Assembly (NCBI RefSeq): GCF_003334255.1
Contig: NZ_QOWU01000050.1
DNA length: 42,065 nt
Direction: 5' to 3' (one strand)
Origin: Escherichia coli
Lineage (GTDB): Bacteria > Pseudomonadota > Gammaproteobacteria > Enterobacterales > Enterobacteriaceae
Shown piece after piece: positions 2,397 through 29,490 of this stretch. The notes below the pieces were generated by a model. The model was given only the letters and a program-made list of their open reading frames with translations. It searched no databases and was not told the origin of the DNA. How positions within the stretch are numbered: position 1 is the stretch's first letter; the number at the start of each line of letters is the position of its first letter. A program made the position numbers and the translations under genes.

Positions 2397-3827
2397 ATGG
2401 CTGGGAATGTTCAGGAAAAACAGTTGCGATGGTACAACATTGCGCTGATGTCTTTTATCACTGTCTGGGGTTTTGGCAACGTTGTTAATAACTATGCCAA
2501 CCAGGGGCTGGTGGTTGTTTTTTCATGGGTGTTTATCTTTGCACTCTATTTCACACCTTATGCGCTAATTGTTGGTCAGTTAGGCTCGACCTTCAAAGAT
2601 GGGAAGGGCGGGGTCAGTACCTGGATTAAACACACGATGGGACCCGGACTGGCTTATCTCGCCGCGTGGACCTACTGGGTGGTGCATATTCCCTATCTGG
2701 CACAAAAACCCCAGGCAATTCTGATTGCGCTCGGTTGGGCGATGAAAGGCGACGGTTCGCTAATCAAAGAATATTCAGTCGTAGCGTTACAGGGGTTAAC
2801 GCTGGTGCTGTTTATCTTCTTTATGTGGGTTGCTTCACGCGGTATGAAATCGCTGAAAATCGTCGGTTCTGTGGCAGGGATTGCTATGTTTGTTATGTCG
2901 CTCCTGTATGTGGCGATGGCGGTAACCGCGCCTGCAATTACTGAAGTGCATATTGCGACCACAAACATTACCTGGGAAACGTTCATTCCTCATATCGACT
3001 TTACCTACATTACCACTATTTCAATGCTGGTTTTCGCGGTTGGCGGAGCAGAGAAGATTTCTCCTTACGTTAATCAAACGCGCAACCCAGGAAAAGAATT
3101 TCCAAAAGGGATGTTATGCCTGGCGGTGATGGTTGCGGTTTGTGCCATTCTGGGCTCGCTGGCGATGGGGATGATGTTTGATTCGCGTAATATCCCGGAT
3201 GACTTAATGACCAACGGTCAGTATTACGCCTTTCAGAAGCTGGGCGAGTATTACAACATGGGTAATACTTTAATGGTGATTTACGCCATTGCGAATACCC
3301 TGGGACAAGTAGCGGCGCTGGTATTCTCGATTGATGCCCCGCTTAAAGTGCTATTAGGTGATGCTGACAGCAAATATATTCCAGCCAGTTTATGTCGTAC
3401 CAACGCTTCTGGTACGCCCGTTAATGGCTATTTTCTGACCCTGGTACTGGTGGCGATTCTGATTATGCTGCCGACTCTCGGCATTGGTGATATGAACAAT
3501 CTCTATAAATGGCTGTTGAACCTTAATTCGGTAGTGATGCCGCTGCGTTATTTATGGGTATTTGTTGCATTTATTGCAGTCGTTCGCTTGGCGCAGAAAT
3601 ATAAACCAGAATATGTCTTTATTCGTAATAAGCCTCTGGCAATGACCGTCGGGATTTGGTGTTTTGCCTTTACCGCCTTTGCCTGTTTGACGGGGATCTT
3701 CCCGAAAATGGAAGCCTTCACTGCAGAGTGGACCTTCCAGTTGGCGCTGAATGTTGCAACGCCGTTTGTGCTGGTAGGATTAGGACTGATATTCCCGCTG
3801 CTGGCGCGTAAAGCGAATAGTAAATAA
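2397..3827 (+). CDS. ycaM: APC-superfamily amino acid/polyamine transporter YcaM
   Basis: 476-aa polytopic membrane protein starting MAGNVQEKQLRWYNIALMSF; ATG at 2397 preceded by an aagga Shine-Dalgarno. The ORF-track start at 2205 lies inside the ycaD terminator hairpin and is rejected. Confidence 0.85.
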   Translation: MAGNVQEKQLRWYNIALMSFITVWGFGNVVNNYANQGLVVVFSWVFIFALYFTPYALIVGQLGSTFKDGKGGVSTWIKHTMGPGLAYLAAWTYWVVHIPYLAQKPQAILIALGWAMKGDGSLIKEYSVVALQGLTLVLFIFFMWVASRGMKSLKIVGSVAGIAMFVMSLLYVAMAVTAPAITEVHIATTNITWETFIPHIDFTYITTISMLVFAVGGAEKISPYVNQTRNPGKEFPKGMLCLAVMVAVCAILGSLAMGMMFDSRNIPDDLMTNGQYYAFQKLGEYYNMGNTLMVIYAIANTLGQVAALVFSIDAPLKVLLGDADSKYIPASLCRTNASGTPVNGYFLTLVLVAILIMLPTLGIGDMNNLYKWLLNLNSVVMPLRYLWVFVAFIAVVRLAQKYKPEYVFIRNKPLAMTVGIWCFAFTAFACLTGIFPKMEAFTAEWTFQLALNVATPFVLVGLGLIFPLLARKANSK

Positions 3828-4736
3828 TTATTGTGGTCGGTGACGCTGACTCTGGCAGATCTGACCCGTTTTTACATAATCGAGAAATGCGCGCAAGCCG
3901 CAGGACATATACTGGCGGTTTGGATAATAGATCTGGAAGCCTGGACGCTCTGTGCTCCAGTCTTCCAGTACACATTCTAAACGACCAGTATCAAGGTACT
4001 CCTTGATCTGTTCATAGAGCAGATACCCGATACCAGCACCCATCAAAACGGCCTCCAGTTCAGCATCAACATCATCCAGAATGATATTTCCTGCGACAGC
4101 AATTTCCAGCTCCTTTGCAAATTGCCAGTGGAAAGGTTTGCCGCTGGGATAACGAAAAACAACACATTGATGATTAAGCAGATCATGAGGATGGCGGGGT
4201 TTGCCATATCTTGCAAAGTACTCTGGCGTTGCTGCTACACATAATTTCACTGGCGGGCCGATCGCCACGCTGATCATATCTTTTTCGACGATGCAACTAA
4301 GTCGAACGCCAGCGTCAAAGCCCTGTTGGACGATATCGACAAGAGAGTCGTCAGTTGTGAGCTCGACTTTAATATCAGGATATTCACGTGTGAAACCAAC
4401 CAGTAAAGACATTAAAAATATACGTGCAGCTACCCGGGCGGCATTGATTTTGAGCGTTCCTGTCGGTGTCAGACGAAAATCATTCATCTCATCTAACATG
4501 ATCTGAATTTCGTCGAAAGCTGGGCGCAATCGTTCATAGAGATTAGAACCCGCTTCCGTTAACGATACGCTTCGGGTTGTCCGATTGAATAAGCGAATTT
4601 TAAGACGTTGTTCCAGTGTTTTAATACTATGGCTAATGGCGGACGAGGATAAGCCTAACTCATCGCCCGCTGCACGAAAGCTTTGATTACGGGCCACGGC
4701 AAAGAAAGTGGCAAAGTCAGACATATTCATCCGCAT
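3828..4736 (-). CDS. ycaN: LysR-family transcriptional regulator YcaN
   Basis: 302-aa ORF with N-terminal LysR-type HTH (FATFFAVARNQSFRAAGDELGLSSSAISHSIKTLEQRL) and a C-terminal substrate-binding domain; convergent and directly abutting the ycaM stop. Confidence 0.9.
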   Translation of the reverse strand: MRMNMSDFATFFAVARNQSFRAAGDELGLSSSAISHSIKTLEQRLKIRLFNRTTRSVSLTEAGSNLYERLRPAFDEIQIMLDEMNDFRLTPTGTLKINAARVAARIFLMSLLVGFTREYPDIKVELTTDDSLVDIVQQGFDAGVRLSCIVEKDMISVAIGPPVKLCVAATPEYFARYGKPRHPHDLLNHQCVVFRYPSGKPFHWQFAKELEIAVAGNIILDDVDAELEAVLMGAGIGYLLYEQIKEYLDTGRLECVLEDWSTERPGFQIYYPNRQYMSCGLRAFLDYVKTGQICQSQRHRPQ

Positions 4737-25840: not shown

Positions 25841-26766
<926 letters not shown>

Positions 26767-26919
26767 TTTCACTTCACGACACTCCAGACAATTTTGGGAG
26801 GAGTGTCGTACCGTTACGATTTTCCTCAATTTTTCTTTTCAACAATTGATCTCATTCAGGTGACATCTTTTATATTGGCGCTCATTATGAAAGCAGTAGC
26901 TTTTATGAGGGTAATCTGA

Positions 26920-27813
26920 ATGGAACAGCTGCGTGCCGAATTAAGCCATTTACTGGGCGAAAAACTCAGTCGTATTGAGTGCGTCAATGAAAAAGCGGAT
27001 ACGGCGTTGTGGGCTTTGTATGACAGCCAGGGAAACCCAATGCCGTTAATGGCAAGAAGCTTTAGTACGCCCGGAAAAGCCCGACAGCTGGCATGGAAAA
27101 CCACCATGCTGGCAAGAAGTGGGACTGTCCGTATGCCGACTATTTATGGTGTGATGACGCATGAAGAACACCCCGGCCCCGATGTCCTGCTACTGGAGCG
27201 GATGCGTGGTGTTTCGGTGGAAGCACCAGCCCGAACACCAGAACGCTGGGAACAGCTCAAAGACCAAATCGTTGAAGCCTTACTGGCCTGGCACCGTCAG
27301 GACAGTCGCGGTTGCGTCGGCGCGGTCGACAATACTCAGGAAAATTTCTGGCCCTCATGGTACCGGCAACATGTTGAAGTGCTATGGACCACGCTCAATC
27401 AGTTCAATAACACCGGTCTAACGATGCAGGATAAGCGGATCCTGTTCCGCACTCGCGAATGTCTCCCGGCATTATTTGAAGGCTTTAACGACAATTGTGT
27501 GCTGATTCACGGTAACTTCTGTTTACGCAGCATGTTGAAAGATTCGCGCAGCGATCAGTTACTGGCGATGGTCGGGCCGGGACTAATGCTTTGGGCACCG
27601 CGAGAATACGAACTGTTCCGACTAATGGATAATTCTCTGGCGGAAGATTTGCTCTGGAGTTACCTGCAACGCGCGCCAGTGGCGGAGTCGTTCATCTGGC
27701 GGCGTTGGTTGTATGTGTTATGGGATGAAGTTGCGCAACTGGTTAATACCGGACGATTTAGTCGGCGCAACTTCGATCTGGCATCAAAATCACTCTTGCC
27801 GTGGCTCGCCTGA
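26920..27813 (+). CDS. ycbJ: kinase/phosphotransferase-like protein YcbJ (function unknown)
   Basis: 297-aa ORF matching YcbJ by sequence as recalled and by position; 3' end overlaps convergent elyC by 24 bp. Confidence 0.8.
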   Translation: MEQLRAELSHLLGEKLSRIECVNEKADTALWALYDSQGNPMPLMARSFSTPGKARQLAWKTTMLARSGTVRMPTIYGVMTHEEHPGPDVLLLERMRGVSVEAPARTPERWEQLKDQIVEALLAWHRQDSRGCVGAVDNTQENFWPSWYRQHVEVLWTTLNQFNNTGLTMQDKRILFRTRECLPALFEGFNDNCVLIHGNFCLRSMLKDSRSDQLLAMVGPGLMLWAPREYELFRLMDNSLAEDLLWSYLQRAPVAESFIWRRWLYVLWDEVAQLVNTGRFSRRNFDLASKSLLPWLA

Positions 27814-28569
27814 CGAACCTTTTAGCCACTGCCAGATACGGCCAAGCGTTTCATAGCCAACACGATCGCTATGCATCAACCAGACCGGAGAAGGGATTGC
27901 CCGTTCCCACGGGTTAAGCGGCGAGTCGATGGCCAACTGATTCGCCGGGGCTGGTAGCGGATTTAACCCTTCCTGCTGAAAAAAGATCATCGCCCGCGGC
28001 AGATGTGATGCGGAGGTCACCAGCAGGAAAGGGGCGTCACCAATCGCCTGTTTCACTGCCGCAGCTTCTTCTTCGGTATCTTTTGGCAAATCCAGGGTGA
28101 TAATTTGCTCGCGCGGCACGCCCAGCGATTGCGCAACTCTGGCACCTACTTCCGCTGTACTCACCGTATTGGTTTTTGCTACGCCTCCCGTGAAGATCAG
28201 TTTTGATCCAGGATTTTCGCGCCATAAGCGAATACCTTCATTCAGGCGTGGCAGACTGTTATTGATTAAATTAGAGCTCGGTGCCCACTGCGGGTTCCAG
28301 GTATAACCACCTCCGAGCACCACGATATAGTCCACTTTTTGCGAATTATTCCATGTCGGATAGGTGCTTTCGATGGGACGCAGCAGGCGGTCGGCTACCG
28401 GTTGCAAACTCAATAACAAGAGCGCCAGCCACCCAATGCTAATAAAAATCTTCCCGGTTTTTTGAAAACGGCTAAACCACAGCAGCGCCAGGCCAGCGCC
28501 AATAATCAACAACATTAGCGGAAGTGGCAGCAACATATTGCCAATCACTTTTTTCAGTGTAAAAAGCAT
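27790..28569 (-). CDS. elyC: envelope biogenesis factor ElyC (DUF218)
   Basis: 259-aa ORF with N-terminal transmembrane segments (MLFTLKKVIGNMLLPLPLMLLIIGAGLALLWF...) and a DUF218 domain. Confidence 0.85.
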   Translation of the reverse strand: MLFTLKKVIGNMLLPLPLMLLIIGAGLALLWFSRFQKTGKIFISIGWLALLLLSLQPVADRLLRPIESTYPTWNNSQKVDYIVVLGGGYTWNPQWAPSSNLINNSLPRLNEGIRLWRENPGSKLIFTGGVAKTNTVSTAEVGARVAQSLGVPREQIITLDLPKDTEEEAAAVKQAIGDAPFLLVTSASHLPRAMIFFQQEGLNPLPAPANQLAIDSPLNPWERAIPSPVWLMHSDRVGYETLGRIWQWLKGSSGEPRQE

Positions 28570-28704
28570 CCTTTCTGGTTCCTTTTTTAACCATATAGCA
28601 AGGGATCGCCAGCGATATTACACCAGACGGGTTCATTCTCGCCGTGGCTGTGACAAAATAGCGTCTTTATCAGAAAACGTCTTAGCCAACCGGTGGAGAA
28701 AGCA

Positions 28705-29490
28705 ATGCAGGATCGCAATTTTGATGATATTGCGGAAAAGTTTTCCCGTAACATTTACGGCACCACCAAAGGGCAGCTTCGACAGGCTATTCTGTGGCAG
28801 GATCTCGATCGCGTGCTGGCGGAAATGGGCCCGCAAAAACTGCGTGTGCTGGATGCTGGCGGTGGAGAAGGGCAGACCGCAATCAAAATGGCCGAGTGTG
28901 GGCATCAGGTCATTTTATGCGATCTTTCTGCGCAGATGATCGACCGCGCAAAACAGGCGGCAGAAGCAAAAGGTGTGAGCGACAACATGCAATTTATACA
29001 TTGCGCCGCTCAGGATGTTGCTTCGCATTTGGAAACGCCCGTTGATCTGATATTGTTCCATGCGGTGCTCGAGTGGGTGGCCGATCCCCGCAGTGTATTG
29101 CAGACCCTGTGGTCAGTGTTGCGTCCAGGCGGCGTGTTGTCGTTAATGTTCTACAATGCGCATGGTTTGTTGATGCATAACATGGTCGCCGGGAATTTTG
29201 ATTACGTGCAGGCGGGAATGCCGAAAAAGAAAAAACGGACGCTTTCGCCAGATTATCCACGCGACCCGGCGCAGGTTTATCTGTGGCTGGAAGAAGCTGG
29301 TTGGCAAATTATGGGTAAGACAGGCGTTCGCGTGTTTCATGATTATCTGCGCGAGAAACACCAGCAGCGCGACTGCTATGAAGCATTACTTGAATTAGAA
29401 ACGCGTTATTGCCGTCAGGAACCGTATATTACCCTGGGGCGTTATATTCATGTCACCGCGCGCAAACCGCAGAGCAAGGATAAAGTATGA
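28705..29490 (+). CDS. cmoM: SAM-dependent tRNA methyltransferase CmoM (formerly SmtA)
   Basis: 261-aa ORF starting [13 protein letters not shown] with SAM-binding motif VLDAGGGEG; ggag Shine-Dalgarno. The GTG-initiated 4-codon extension in the ORF track is rejected. Confidence 0.85.

Follow-up and report, generated by a model that had tools for sequence, protein, structure and literature searches.

Convergent coding sequences that overlap at their 3' ends have been catalogued in Escherichia coli, where Lillo and Krakauer counted 58 such overlaps (PMC2174442). Most convergent overlapping genes have no rho-independent terminator, phase 123:321 makes up 33% of the convergent overlaps of at least 5 nt, and a model of stop codon mutation fits the convergent class (PMC2174442). 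Two other systems concern the transcription of such pairs. In convergent excludons (Lasa and Toledo-Arana; PMC12288877), opposite-strand neighbors have transcripts that necessarily overlap, and in programmed RNA polymerase collisions (Ju, Wang, and Liu; 10.1101/2022.10.23.513370), a convergent pair has closely apposed 3' ends. The ycbJ-elyC pair, which lies in the 42,065-nucleotide stretch of E. coli DNA analyzed here (the window), shares these arrangements. Like the pairs of Lillo and Krakauer, the two genes lie on opposite strands and overlap by a few codons at their 3' ends in phase 123:321, and their origin is compatible with loss of a stop codon followed by extension.

The overlap is already known and is not new: it follows from the RefSeq coordinates, it was described in a 2025 preprint (10.1101/2025.02.11.637708), and the pair is among the 165 convergent excludons of MG1655 reported by ExcludonFinder (NAR 2025, PMC12288877). 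The pair was called an excludon from its read coverage in 50% or more of 58 RNA-seq data sets for MG1655 (PMC12288877). A literature search under the older names ycbC and ycbJ returned only an unrelated Bacillus paper. The initial annotation called both proteins poorly characterized, which applies to YcbJ, for which no function has been shown experimentally, and does not apply to ElyC, the subject of several dedicated papers, with genetic phenotypes confirmed in a depletion strain.

Geometry of the overlap and identity of the genes

We confirmed from the open reading frame listing and by reading the sequence that ycbJ and elyC overlap tail to tail by 24 bp. RefSeq/PGAP places both gene ends at the same coordinates as the open reading frame listing. 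The features are as follows.

26920 to 27813, plus strand: ycbJ coding sequence, 297 amino acids, YcbJ family phosphotransferase with an APH fold (open reading frame, RefSeq, Pfam, and orthologue alignment)
27790 to 28569, minus strand: elyC (ycbC) coding sequence, 259 amino acids, envelope biogenesis factor with a DUF218 domain (open reading frame, RefSeq, Pfam, and alignment)
27790 to 27813, both strands: tail-to-tail coding sequence overlap, 24 bp, phase 123:321
27811 to 27813, plus strand: TGA stop of ycbJ, opposite the TCA codon for ElyC Ser253
27790 to 27792, minus strand: TGA stop of elyC (complement of tca), opposite the TCA codon for YcbJ Ser291

The plus strand of the overlap encodes YcbJ S291 to A297 and the stop codon, and the minus strand encodes ElyC S253 to E259 and the stop codon. 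Codon boundaries coincide in the two frames, with position 1 opposite position 3 and position 2 opposite position 2, as in phase 123:321. The overlap had been described as the last 8 codons of each gene, a count that is correct with the stop included, each gene having only 7 sense codons plus its stop there. Both strands carry sense codons over eighteen bases (six codons), and each stop lies inside the partner's open reading frame on the opposite strand, facing a TCA serine codon.

Both open reading frames behave as genuine genes. YcbJ matches Pfam PF01636 (APH) over residues 64 to 249 and ElyC matches PF02698 (DUF218) over residues 80 to 231, and full-length orthologues of both are present in 80 species. 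Per-site entropy at codon positions 1/2/3 follows the typical coding pattern in ycbJ outside the overlap (0.39/0.19/1.21) and in elyC (0.42/0.23/1.31), the third position having 5 to 6 times the entropy of the second in both frames. A check for an earlier-ending frame left both C termini standing. Since an open reading frame runs only to the first stop in its frame, and since both frames here are real genes, misannotation of either C terminus is impossible.

Conservation and variants of the overlap

Within E. coli, the 1.7-kb ycbJ-elyC stretch was found in all 5426 of 5426 complete genomes, with at least 80% of the stretch present in 5425, and the 84-nt junction was found at 90% identity or more in 5426 of 5426. 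Among the Enterobacteriaceae, 76 of 80 species loci have the overlap, which measures 24 bp in 67, 21 bp in 8, and 36 bp in 1; these species are phylogenetically related, so that the counts and the entropies are non-independent samples, and only six codons are compared. The overlap is thus common to orthologous pairs across species and is not a strain-specific error.

The variants are informative about how the two ends are tied together. In eight species, the ycbJ Leu292 codon is TTA or CTA, which creates a TAA or TAG stop in elyC one codon earlier. YcbJ residue 291 is nearly always Ser where the overlap is 24 bp but may be S, A, N, G, or E where the elyC stop comes one codon earlier. ElyC residue 253 is an invariant Ser in 71 aligned sequences, all of which have the ycbJ stop opposite. 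At one locus (L067), the ycbJ stop is lost and YcbJ is longer by 4 residues. In three Citrobacter species, a REP-like insertion parts the two genes and the overlap is lost; at these loci ElyC ends in KG-x-EH*, and both frames are intact at 87 to 92% identity.

A direct search for YcbJ homologues gave close relatives only (at least 86% identity) and no outgroups. Outgroups were instead obtained from a representative protein search and the contigs encoding the matches, which yielded three metagenomic contigs. A Plesiomonas-type contig (L084) has convergent ycbJ and elyC with a 30-nt spacer that contains a perfect 11-bp hairpin without U-tracts, a 33%-identical orthologue belongs to a convergent pair with a 107-nt spacer, and ycbJ also occurs in a third lineage that has no elyC. 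A strict scan of the outgroup spacers found no canonical terminators. Since distant relatives keep the same convergent pair with spacers of 30 or 107 nt, the overlap appears, on the basis of these sequences, to be the derived state. In the spacer-bearing outgroups, ElyC ends near KG and YcbJ ends at its usual place; this pattern, from a set of three outgroup contigs, fits an extension of elyC by loss or shift of its stop.

YcbJ constrains the shared sequence

We compared the two proteins over the shared 24 bp and found the constraint to be asymmetric. In the overlap, ycbJ codon positions 1/2/3 have entropies of 0.49/0.10/0.72, the periodicity of ycbJ and not that of elyC. The YcbJ tail has the motif L-x-P-W-L, whose L292, P294, and W295 do not vary even where orthologues lack the elyC overlap, and the structure model places a helix at residues 282 to 296 (pLDDT 89 to 94). 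In ElyC, invariance stops at L249-K250. Beyond this point the tail is variable in length, its residues have an amino acid entropy of 1.4 to 1.7 versus a protein mean of 0.51, it varies at the synonymous sites of ycbJ, and some lineages have a shorter tail or another in its place.

These observations show that the YcbJ C-terminal L-x-P-W-L, in a conserved terminal helix, dictates the shared sequence, and that each stop codon holds the partner's facing Ser codon fixed. The ElyC residues S-G-E-P-R-Q-E look, from their variation, like a dispensable passenger tail. This tail is probably disordered: in the structure model the last helix ends at 250 and residues 251 to 259 are coil, with pLDDT below 50 at 255 to 259, and as the model is also of low confidence over 212 to 241, the case for disorder rests mainly on sequence variation.

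Transcription of the pair and the excludon alternative

The initial annotation proposed that convergent transcription can produce antisense-mediated mutual interference. Because the coding sequences overlap, full-length mRNAs of the two genes are necessarily complementary for 24 nt or more, and antisense reads are present over both genes in total RNA-seq (PMC7373196 Table S1c, which gives single RPM values and labels the strand of ycbC wrongly). Sense and antisense values in the wild type are 36.4 and 5.4 RPM for ycbJ and 20.5 and 7.1 RPM for elyC. In the rnc-14 and rnc-38 mutants they are 32.7/2.0 and 15.9/4.3 for ycbJ and 11.0/5.9 and 16.7/6.7 for elyC, all of them single values at low expression (PMC7373196). 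Double-stranded RNA captured by p19 amounts to 8 to 19 RPM over the pair and is not enriched relative to neighboring genes (PMC7373196). Mutual interference between ycbJ and elyC is possible, but with no rise in the rnc mutants and no p19 enrichment, nothing in these data shows a mutual effect.

Plus-strand transcription falls about 7-fold around mid-ycbJ in a Rho-dependent manner, as measured in 800-nt windows (PMC7815308).

About 27287 (MG1655 972120), plus strand: peak of a Rho-dependent termination region internal to ycbJ (PMC7815308 supplementary file 2)

The drop at this region is bicyclomycin sensitive, with a Rho score of 5.47 and p = 5e-12 (PMC7815308). Its position was converted with an offset of +778 between genome versions, checked against ycbK, and is approximate given the 800-nt windows. 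Many ycbJ transcripts may therefore never reach the overlap. For elyC read-through on the minus strand, the PMC7815308 tables have no Rho-region entry. The read-through RNA is C-rich and G-poor over about 300 nt, a composition compatible with Rho sites but not diagnostic, and we give it little weight. The Adams 2021 supplementary tables list no 3' end for either gene, the Rho region being the sole entry, and the SMRT-Cappable-seq supplements have no entry for ycbJ or elyC.

The foremost alternative to an ordinary overlap is a selected convergent excludon, in which selection would preserve both the overlap and the lack of a terminator for reciprocal, mutually exclusive expression. The means would be transcriptional interference, cleavage of the mRNA duplex by RNase III, or both, and an envelope factor would thereby be tied to a putative kinase adjoining LPS genes. 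The pair belongs to the MG1655 "excludome," and excludon pairs as a class have higher synteny and fewer co-expressing single cells than other neighbors (PMC12288877); however, any co-expressed pair with overlapping coding sequences qualifies automatically, ExcludonFinder's convergent pairs could not be validated by p19 double-stranded RNA capture (PMC12288877), and we found no test specific to this pair in the literature. Antisense-to-sense ratios of 0.06 to 0.27 for ycbJ and 0.35 to 0.53 for elyC exceed the 0.01 to 0.04 of kdsB, smtA, and mukFE (PMC7373196), but the weakly expressed yaaX, yaaJ, and yaaH show similarly high ratios in the same table. That 76 of 80 species retain the overlap, and that even distant spacer-bearing relatives keep the convergent order, would suit a selected arrangement, yet the Citrobacter clade has lost the overlap, one ycbJ-bearing lineage has no elyC, and the overlap sequence evolves as YcbJ coding constraint alone predicts. 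Two rnc mutants without an increase in sense or antisense RNA, the lack of p19 enrichment, and the halting of much plus-strand transcription by Rho near mid-ycbJ also speak against it, and we judge a selected excludon unlikely.

A stronger form, in which the terminator-free overlap is a selected switch such that inducing one promoter (for example, at low temperature, where ElyC is needed) shuts off the partner, seems to us more doubtful again. Were it true, lipid-carrier and ECA homeostasis (ElyC) would be reciprocally linked to the uncharacterized kinase YcbJ, next to kdsB, lpxK, and msbA, and the near-universal retention in Enterobacteriaceae would reflect function and not inertia.

Terminators and inverted repeats

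That no terminator intervenes between the genes, as first noted, was upheld by a consensus scan, which found none in or beside the overlap and a total number of sites not above shuffled expectation. The nearest plus-strand candidate is a weak 6-bp hairpin at 28525 to 28543, and an Rfam search of 26700 to 28800 gave no match at E of 1 or less. Inverted repeats lie near the junction.

27794 to 27836, strand not assigned: imperfect inverted repeat with the ycbJ stop between its arms (27794-27806 and 27824-27836); rejected as a bidirectional hairpin
27727 to 27774, strand not assigned: perfect 10-bp inverted repeat GAAGTTGCGC/GCGCAACTTC, inside ycbJ, with no U-tract

On the minus strand, the perfect repeat follows the elyC stop at a distance of about 15 to 60 nt, with a fold z score of -2.6. 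It is present in the window and in one E. coli-group locus, is weak or absent in other genera, and is not conserved outside Escherichia.

A hidden bidirectional terminator would require the repeats 27794-27806/27824-27836 and 27776-27783/27830-37 to form a stem-loop in both nascent RNAs, positioning collisions or termination. Inverted repeats do exist around the overlap; on the elyC strand a hairpin with 13-nt arms is followed by GUGAUUUUGAU; nearly all sequences have TGATTT after the elyC stop; the Plesiomonas-type spacer has its perfect 11-bp hairpin; and positioned collisions require stem-loops (10.1101/2022.10.23.513370). However, the plus-strand segment folds no better than shuffled sequence (z = -1.2), the stem of 13 pairs has two mismatches and encloses a loop of 17 nt, and alignment column 49 is G in most species, breaking another pair. 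In 69 sequences, the share of paired cells equals shuffled expectation (69.2 versus 68.9%, and 80.4 versus 80.3%), and variable pairs break with no compensation. Trp-Leu codons of the two proteins account for the invariant core TGGCT, the TTT is antisense to the conserved YcbJ Lys290 codon AAA, and the consensus scan found no terminator. We therefore regard a bidirectional terminator as highly improbable.

A conserved RNA hairpin across the overlap was likewise rejected: neither of two candidate structures showed covariation in 69 sequences, and the complementarity comes from the Trp-Leu codons.

The last alternative, an annotation artefact in which one frame is unreal or ends earlier so that no true coding overlap exists, is effectively refuted by the unambiguous stop codons, the full-length conservation of both frames in 80 species with coding-type entropy, the Pfam domains in both proteins, the depletion-confirmed ElyC phenotypes, and the fact that the last residues are the most conserved segment of YcbJ, and no point in its support was found, YcbJ's want of an experimentally shown function notwithstanding.

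Origin and meaning of the overlap

We conclude that the overlap is probably an ancient and ordinary tail-to-tail overlap of the "extended stop" type and not a dedicated regulatory device. The ancestor would have had convergent ycbJ and elyC with a short spacer between them. In the core Enterobacteriaceae lineage, the spacer and the old elyC stop would then have been lost, and the elyC frame would have run antisense over the last ycbJ codons to its first in-frame stop, the TGA opposite the Ser291 TCA. Because no intrinsic terminator fits in the overlap, transcription of each gene would continue into its partner as low-level antisense RNA, a view with partial support. Such read-through would most likely be ended by Rho and occasionally by polymerase collision, and any mutual interference would be a weak by-product and not a selected function. 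Against an ordinary leftover, retention in about 95% of species could also reflect selection for the overlap. Neutral retention is hard to tell from selection here, because undoing the overlap takes an insertion or a rare TTA or CTA codon.

The importance of the overlap is mainly practical and concerns deletion strains. From the coordinates, the Keio ycbJ deletion should remove 27790-27792, exactly the elyC stop codon, and the Keio elyC deletion should remove 27811-27813, exactly the ycbJ stop codon. Each knockout should therefore alter the C terminus of the other protein. The ycbJ deletion has been reported to behave like the elyC deletion (10.1101/2025.02.11.637708), which fits loss of the elyC stop. 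Genome-wide phenotypes of ycbJ are thus untrustworthy without complementation. The natural "uncoupling" variants, for their part, say that the ElyC tail is dispensable.

Comparison with known systems

As an excludon, the pair departs from the classic cases, in which a long untranslated region covers the partner, whereas for ycbJ-elyC only overlap of the coding sequences has been demonstrated. The hallmark of an excludon is that its genes exclude each other's expression, by interference or by RNase III; of this the rnc and p19 data for this pair give no sign. Simultaneous transcription of the two genes should bring head-on polymerase collisions, but the mechanism of Ju, Wang, and Liu needs a stem-loop between the genes. 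The ycbJ-elyC pair has no conserved stem-loop, and collisions there would therefore not be positioned.

Closer parallels come from the same window and from the coding overlaps. The ycaM-ycaN pair (2397-3827, plus strand; 3828-4736, minus strand) is likewise convergent, has no spacer, and is on the ExcludonFinder list, differing in that its stops abut with a 0-nt spacer and its coding sequences do not overlap. With 58 pairs in E. coli and this 0-nt pair in the same window, an overlap of the ycbJ-elyC type is not rare; it is an ordinary feature that opens no new question of gene regulation. From the pairs of Lillo and Krakauer, ycbJ-elyC differs in nothing essential. Its 24 bp exceed the modal length of 4 bp, the family has conserved it unusually well, and the direction of constraint can be assigned. 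The locus is a small, clear example of constraint shared between overlapping frames: one dominates, the other is carried with it, and each stop codon holds the other in place.

Geometry of the ycbJ/elyC overlap

We compared the ORF list with the RefSeq annotation and with the bases themselves, and all three place the gene ends at the same positions (RefSeq ends are identical to the ORF list for both genes). The 3' overlap reported in the initial annotation is thereby borne out.

26920-27813, + strand: ycbJ, 297 aa (ORF list)
27790-28569, - strand: elyC, 259 aa (ORF list)
27790-27813, both strands: overlap, read directly as TCA CTC TTG CCG TGG CTC GCC TGA

The + strand of the overlap encodes the YcbJ end (S-L-L-P-W-L-A-stop), and the - strand encodes the ElyC end (S-G-E-P-R-Q-E-stop). 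The eight codons originally counted for each gene hold if the stop is included; sense codons number only seven per gene. The two frames have common codon boundaries, with position 1 opposite position 3 and position 2 opposite position 2, and each TGA stop lies antisense to a Ser TCA codon of the partner gene.

The window is chromosomal E. coli DNA. The 1.7-kb stretch around the overlap was matched at ≥95% identity in 5426 of 5426 complete E. coli genomes, and the window is collinear throughout with strain G6/7 (56 mismatches in 42,065 bases). Four gene pairs in the window are convergent, and their spacers measure 221, 81, 0, and -24 nt. The 0-nt pair is ycaM (2397-3827, +) and ycaN (3828-4736, -), whose stops abut; it is likewise in the ExcludonFinder list (PMC12288877).

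YcbJ dictates the shared sequence

We calculated per-site entropy over 70 loci without indels relative to E. coli in either gene, plus the window. The six sense codons in common gave 0.49/0.10/0.72 at positions 1/2/3 of the ycbJ frame. This is the pattern of ycbJ outside the overlap (0.39/0.19/1.21), somewhat damped at position 3, and the reverse of the elyC pattern (0.42/0.23/1.31). Variable sites are mostly synonymous third positions of ycbJ, which are first positions of elyC, and the ElyC tail therefore alternates E/K/Q, G/R, and Q/E/K, with amino acid entropies of 1.4-1.7 (mean over the protein, 0.51). The tail of YcbJ is constant (K-S-L-L-P-W-L-A). In protein alignments, YcbJ L292, P294, and W295 are invariant, including in three distant orthologues without the elyC overlap, while ElyC invariance ends at L249-K250, beyond which length and sequence vary (KGKH* in the Plesiomonas type, KG-x-EH* in insertion-bearing Citrobacter, SSGEPRQE* in E. 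coli). AlphaFold2 models built on these alignments predict a YcbJ C-terminal helix at 282-296 (pLDDT 89-94) and a last ElyC helix ending at 250, followed by coil at 251-259 (pLDDT <50 at 255-259); the ElyC model is supportive only, because residues 212-241 also have low confidence. Thus, it is YcbJ that dictates the shared sequence.

No conserved terminator at the overlap

The initial annotation saw no terminator between the genes, and our terminator scan agreed, giving no site in or beside the overlap; an Rfam search around it matched no family. Of three inverted repeats near the junction, two span the overlap, and we evaluated both as candidate structures in an alignment of 69 sequences. The share of paired cells matched shuffled expectation (69.2 versus 68.9% for one structure, 80.4 versus 80.3% for the other), there were no compensating changes, and variable pairs break the structures. 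The invariant core, TGGCT/AGCCA, consists of the Trp-Leu codons of both proteins on opposite strands. The + strand fold of the segment was not better than shuffles (z = -1.2). The - strand fold (z = -2.6) is due to a perfect 10-bp repeat inside ycbJ, just downstream of the - strand elyC stop, that lacks a U-tract and shows no conservation beyond Escherichia:

27727-27736 and 27765-27774: inverted repeat GAAGTTGCGC / GCGCAACTTC

Given pairing at the shuffled level, the lack of compensation, and the + strand z score, we rejected a conserved bidirectional terminator; a conserved terminator is absent at the overlap.

Natural variants and origin of the overlap

A scan with ElyC, using one genome per species, gave 80 Enterobacteriaceae loci from genera including Escherichia, Salmonella, Citrobacter, Klebsiella, Enterobacter, Kosakonia, Kluyvera, Buttiauxella, Cedecea, and Mangrovibacter. 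Both stops could be placed in each, and the overlap is ancient.

Table. Junction types among the 80 loci
24-bp overlap: 67/80; geometry as in E. coli
21-bp overlap: 8/80; elyC ends one codon sooner
36-bp overlap: 1/80 (locus L067); ycbJ stop lost, YcbJ longer by four residues
No overlap: 3/80, Citrobacter; spacers 58, 93, and 117 nt
24-bp junction with disrupted elyC: 1/80; E. albertii type strain

In the last case (Escherichia albertii NBRC 107761, L005:2771-2773), an in-frame TAG replaces the W91 TGG of other species, reflecting either a pseudogene or a sequencing error in the type-strain assembly; neither ycbJ nor the 24-bp junction is disrupted.

The eight 21-bp species have TTA or CTA at ycbJ Leu292, which places a TAA or TAG elyC stop on the other strand. 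These codons are synonymous in ycbJ and a stop in elyC, and thus one ElyC residue is lost. YcbJ residue 291 then varies (S, A, N, G, E); in 24-bp species it is nearly always Ser TCA, because it lies antisense to the elyC stop. The ycbJ stop, in turn, fixes its antisense ElyC residue 253 as an invariant Ser. In three Citrobacter, a 58-117-nt insertion that includes a REP-like palindrome (GCCTGATGGCGACGC...GCGTCTTATCAGGCCTAC) falls precisely at the boundary of ElyC codon 252 and the ycbJ stop:

L010:3266-3358, C. youngae
L016:3266-3323, C. werkmanii
L025:3266-3382, C. sp. wls619

The insertion separates the genes and gives ElyC a new short end (KG-x-EH*), with both ORFs intact. The ycbJ Ser codon freed in this way has shifted from TCA to TCG in C. 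youngae. Taken jointly, these variants show that both the ElyC tail and the overlap are dispensable.

The YcbJ family is narrow: a search of 1.84 billion representatives gave very few full-length relatives at less than 75% identity. A Plesiomonas-type contig (L084) has kdsB-ycbJ, a 30-nt spacer, and then a convergent DUF218 gene. In this spacer, a perfect 11-bp hairpin without U-tracts (GGAATAACCGC-cagcgca-GCGGTTATTCC, L084:2031-2059) spans the ycbJ stop, and may be a bidirectional stem-loop of a kind lost from core Enterobacteriaceae. A 33%-identical YcbJ orthologue has the same convergent pair with an AT-rich 107-nt spacer. On a metagenomic contig with a 44%-identical YcbJ (L082:3001-4787), lpxK-ycaR-kdsB-ycbJ is followed directly by cmoM-mukFEB; elyC is absent, and YcbJ is therefore independent of an adjacent ElyC. 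Since these outgroups are convergent with spacers or lack elyC, the convergent arrangement predates the overlap. With polarity read from these three contigs, the overlap is probably a derived state of core Enterobacteriaceae that would have arisen by spacer loss and elyC extension.

In the window, kdsB-ycbJ occupies 26020-27813, and ycbJ is invariably the next gene after kdsB of the msbA-lpxK-ycaQ-ycaR-kdsB cluster, distant relatives included. YcbJ is an uncharacterised APH-fold kinase whose distant orthologues weakly match Pfam Fructosamin_kin. Cluster and matches hint that YcbJ may be a sugar or envelope-precursor kinase.

Transcription across the junction

In wild-type cells (Huang et al. 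2020, Table S1c, PMC7373196), sense/antisense RPM were 36.4/5.4 for ycbJ and 20.5/7.1 for ycbC (elyC), compared with 106/1.7 and 91.6/2.4 for the neighbours kdsB and smtA. Both ycbJ and elyC thus have genuine but low antisense RNA, and antisense/sense ratios are similar in other weakly expressed genes of that table. Table S1c labels ycbC "+" and mukB "-", contradicting Table S1b and the genome, so its sense/antisense values for these two genes need care. Single values from rnc-14 and rnc-38 show no rise of ycbJ/elyC sense or antisense RNA, and p19-captured dsRNA over the pair (8-19 RPM, also single values) is not above that of neighbours (PMC7373196).

Adams et al. 2021 (supplementary file 2, PMC7815308) list a + strand Rho termination region inside ycbJ, with a peak at 972120 (Rho score 5.47, p = 5e-12). 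DirectRNA-seq coverage upstream/downstream is 135/18 without bicyclomycin, a drop of ~7-fold, and 192/140 with it. By our coordinate conversion from MG1655, the peak lies near 27287 (+), ~500 nt before the overlap; its position is approximate because windows are 800 nt. The drop reflects either premature termination of ycbJ or a stop of kdsB read-through. The supplementary files of that study covered here list no - strand Rho region or Term-seq 3' end for ycbJ/elyC. For ~300 nt, the elyC read-through RNA in ycbJ is rich in C and poor in G, a composition compatible with, not proof of, Rho loading.

Read-through transcripts would be ended by Rho or polymerase collision, and any mutual interference of the kind first proposed would be a by-product. 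A regulatory role through convergent transcription is possible, and has been proposed generically for all listed excludon pairs, including ycbJ-elyC (PMC12288877). Our literature search found no pair-specific support for mutual regulation, and several lines of evidence weigh against the overlap having a selected role.

The overlap matters for the interpretation of mutants. A standard Keio deletion of ycbJ would remove 27790-27792, the elyC stop, and one of elyC would remove 27811-27813, the ycbJ stop; therefore, either knockout should alter the other protein's C terminus. This fits a 2025 preprint in which deleting ycbJ inactivates elyC (10.1101/2025.02.11.637708). ElyC phenotypes were confirmed with a Para::elyC depletion strain (PMC3879167).

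Comparison with known convergent overlaps

The ycbJ/elyC overlap is already known and is an ordinary kind of feature. The same preprint describes the two genes as overlapping in opposite orientation, and ExcludonFinder (NAR 2025, PMC12288877) lists ycbJ-elyC as one of 165 convergent excludons detected in 50% or more of 58 MG1655 RNA-seq samples. Its overlapping-boundary criterion applies automatically here, because the coding sequences overlap, and its convergent excludons could not be validated by p19 data. Lillo and Krakauer (PMC2174442) counted 58 convergent CDS overlaps in E. coli, a known class in which only 20% of genes have a rho-independent terminator. Among convergent overlaps of at least 5 nt, 33% are in phase 123:321, and a stop-codon-mutation model fits the class.
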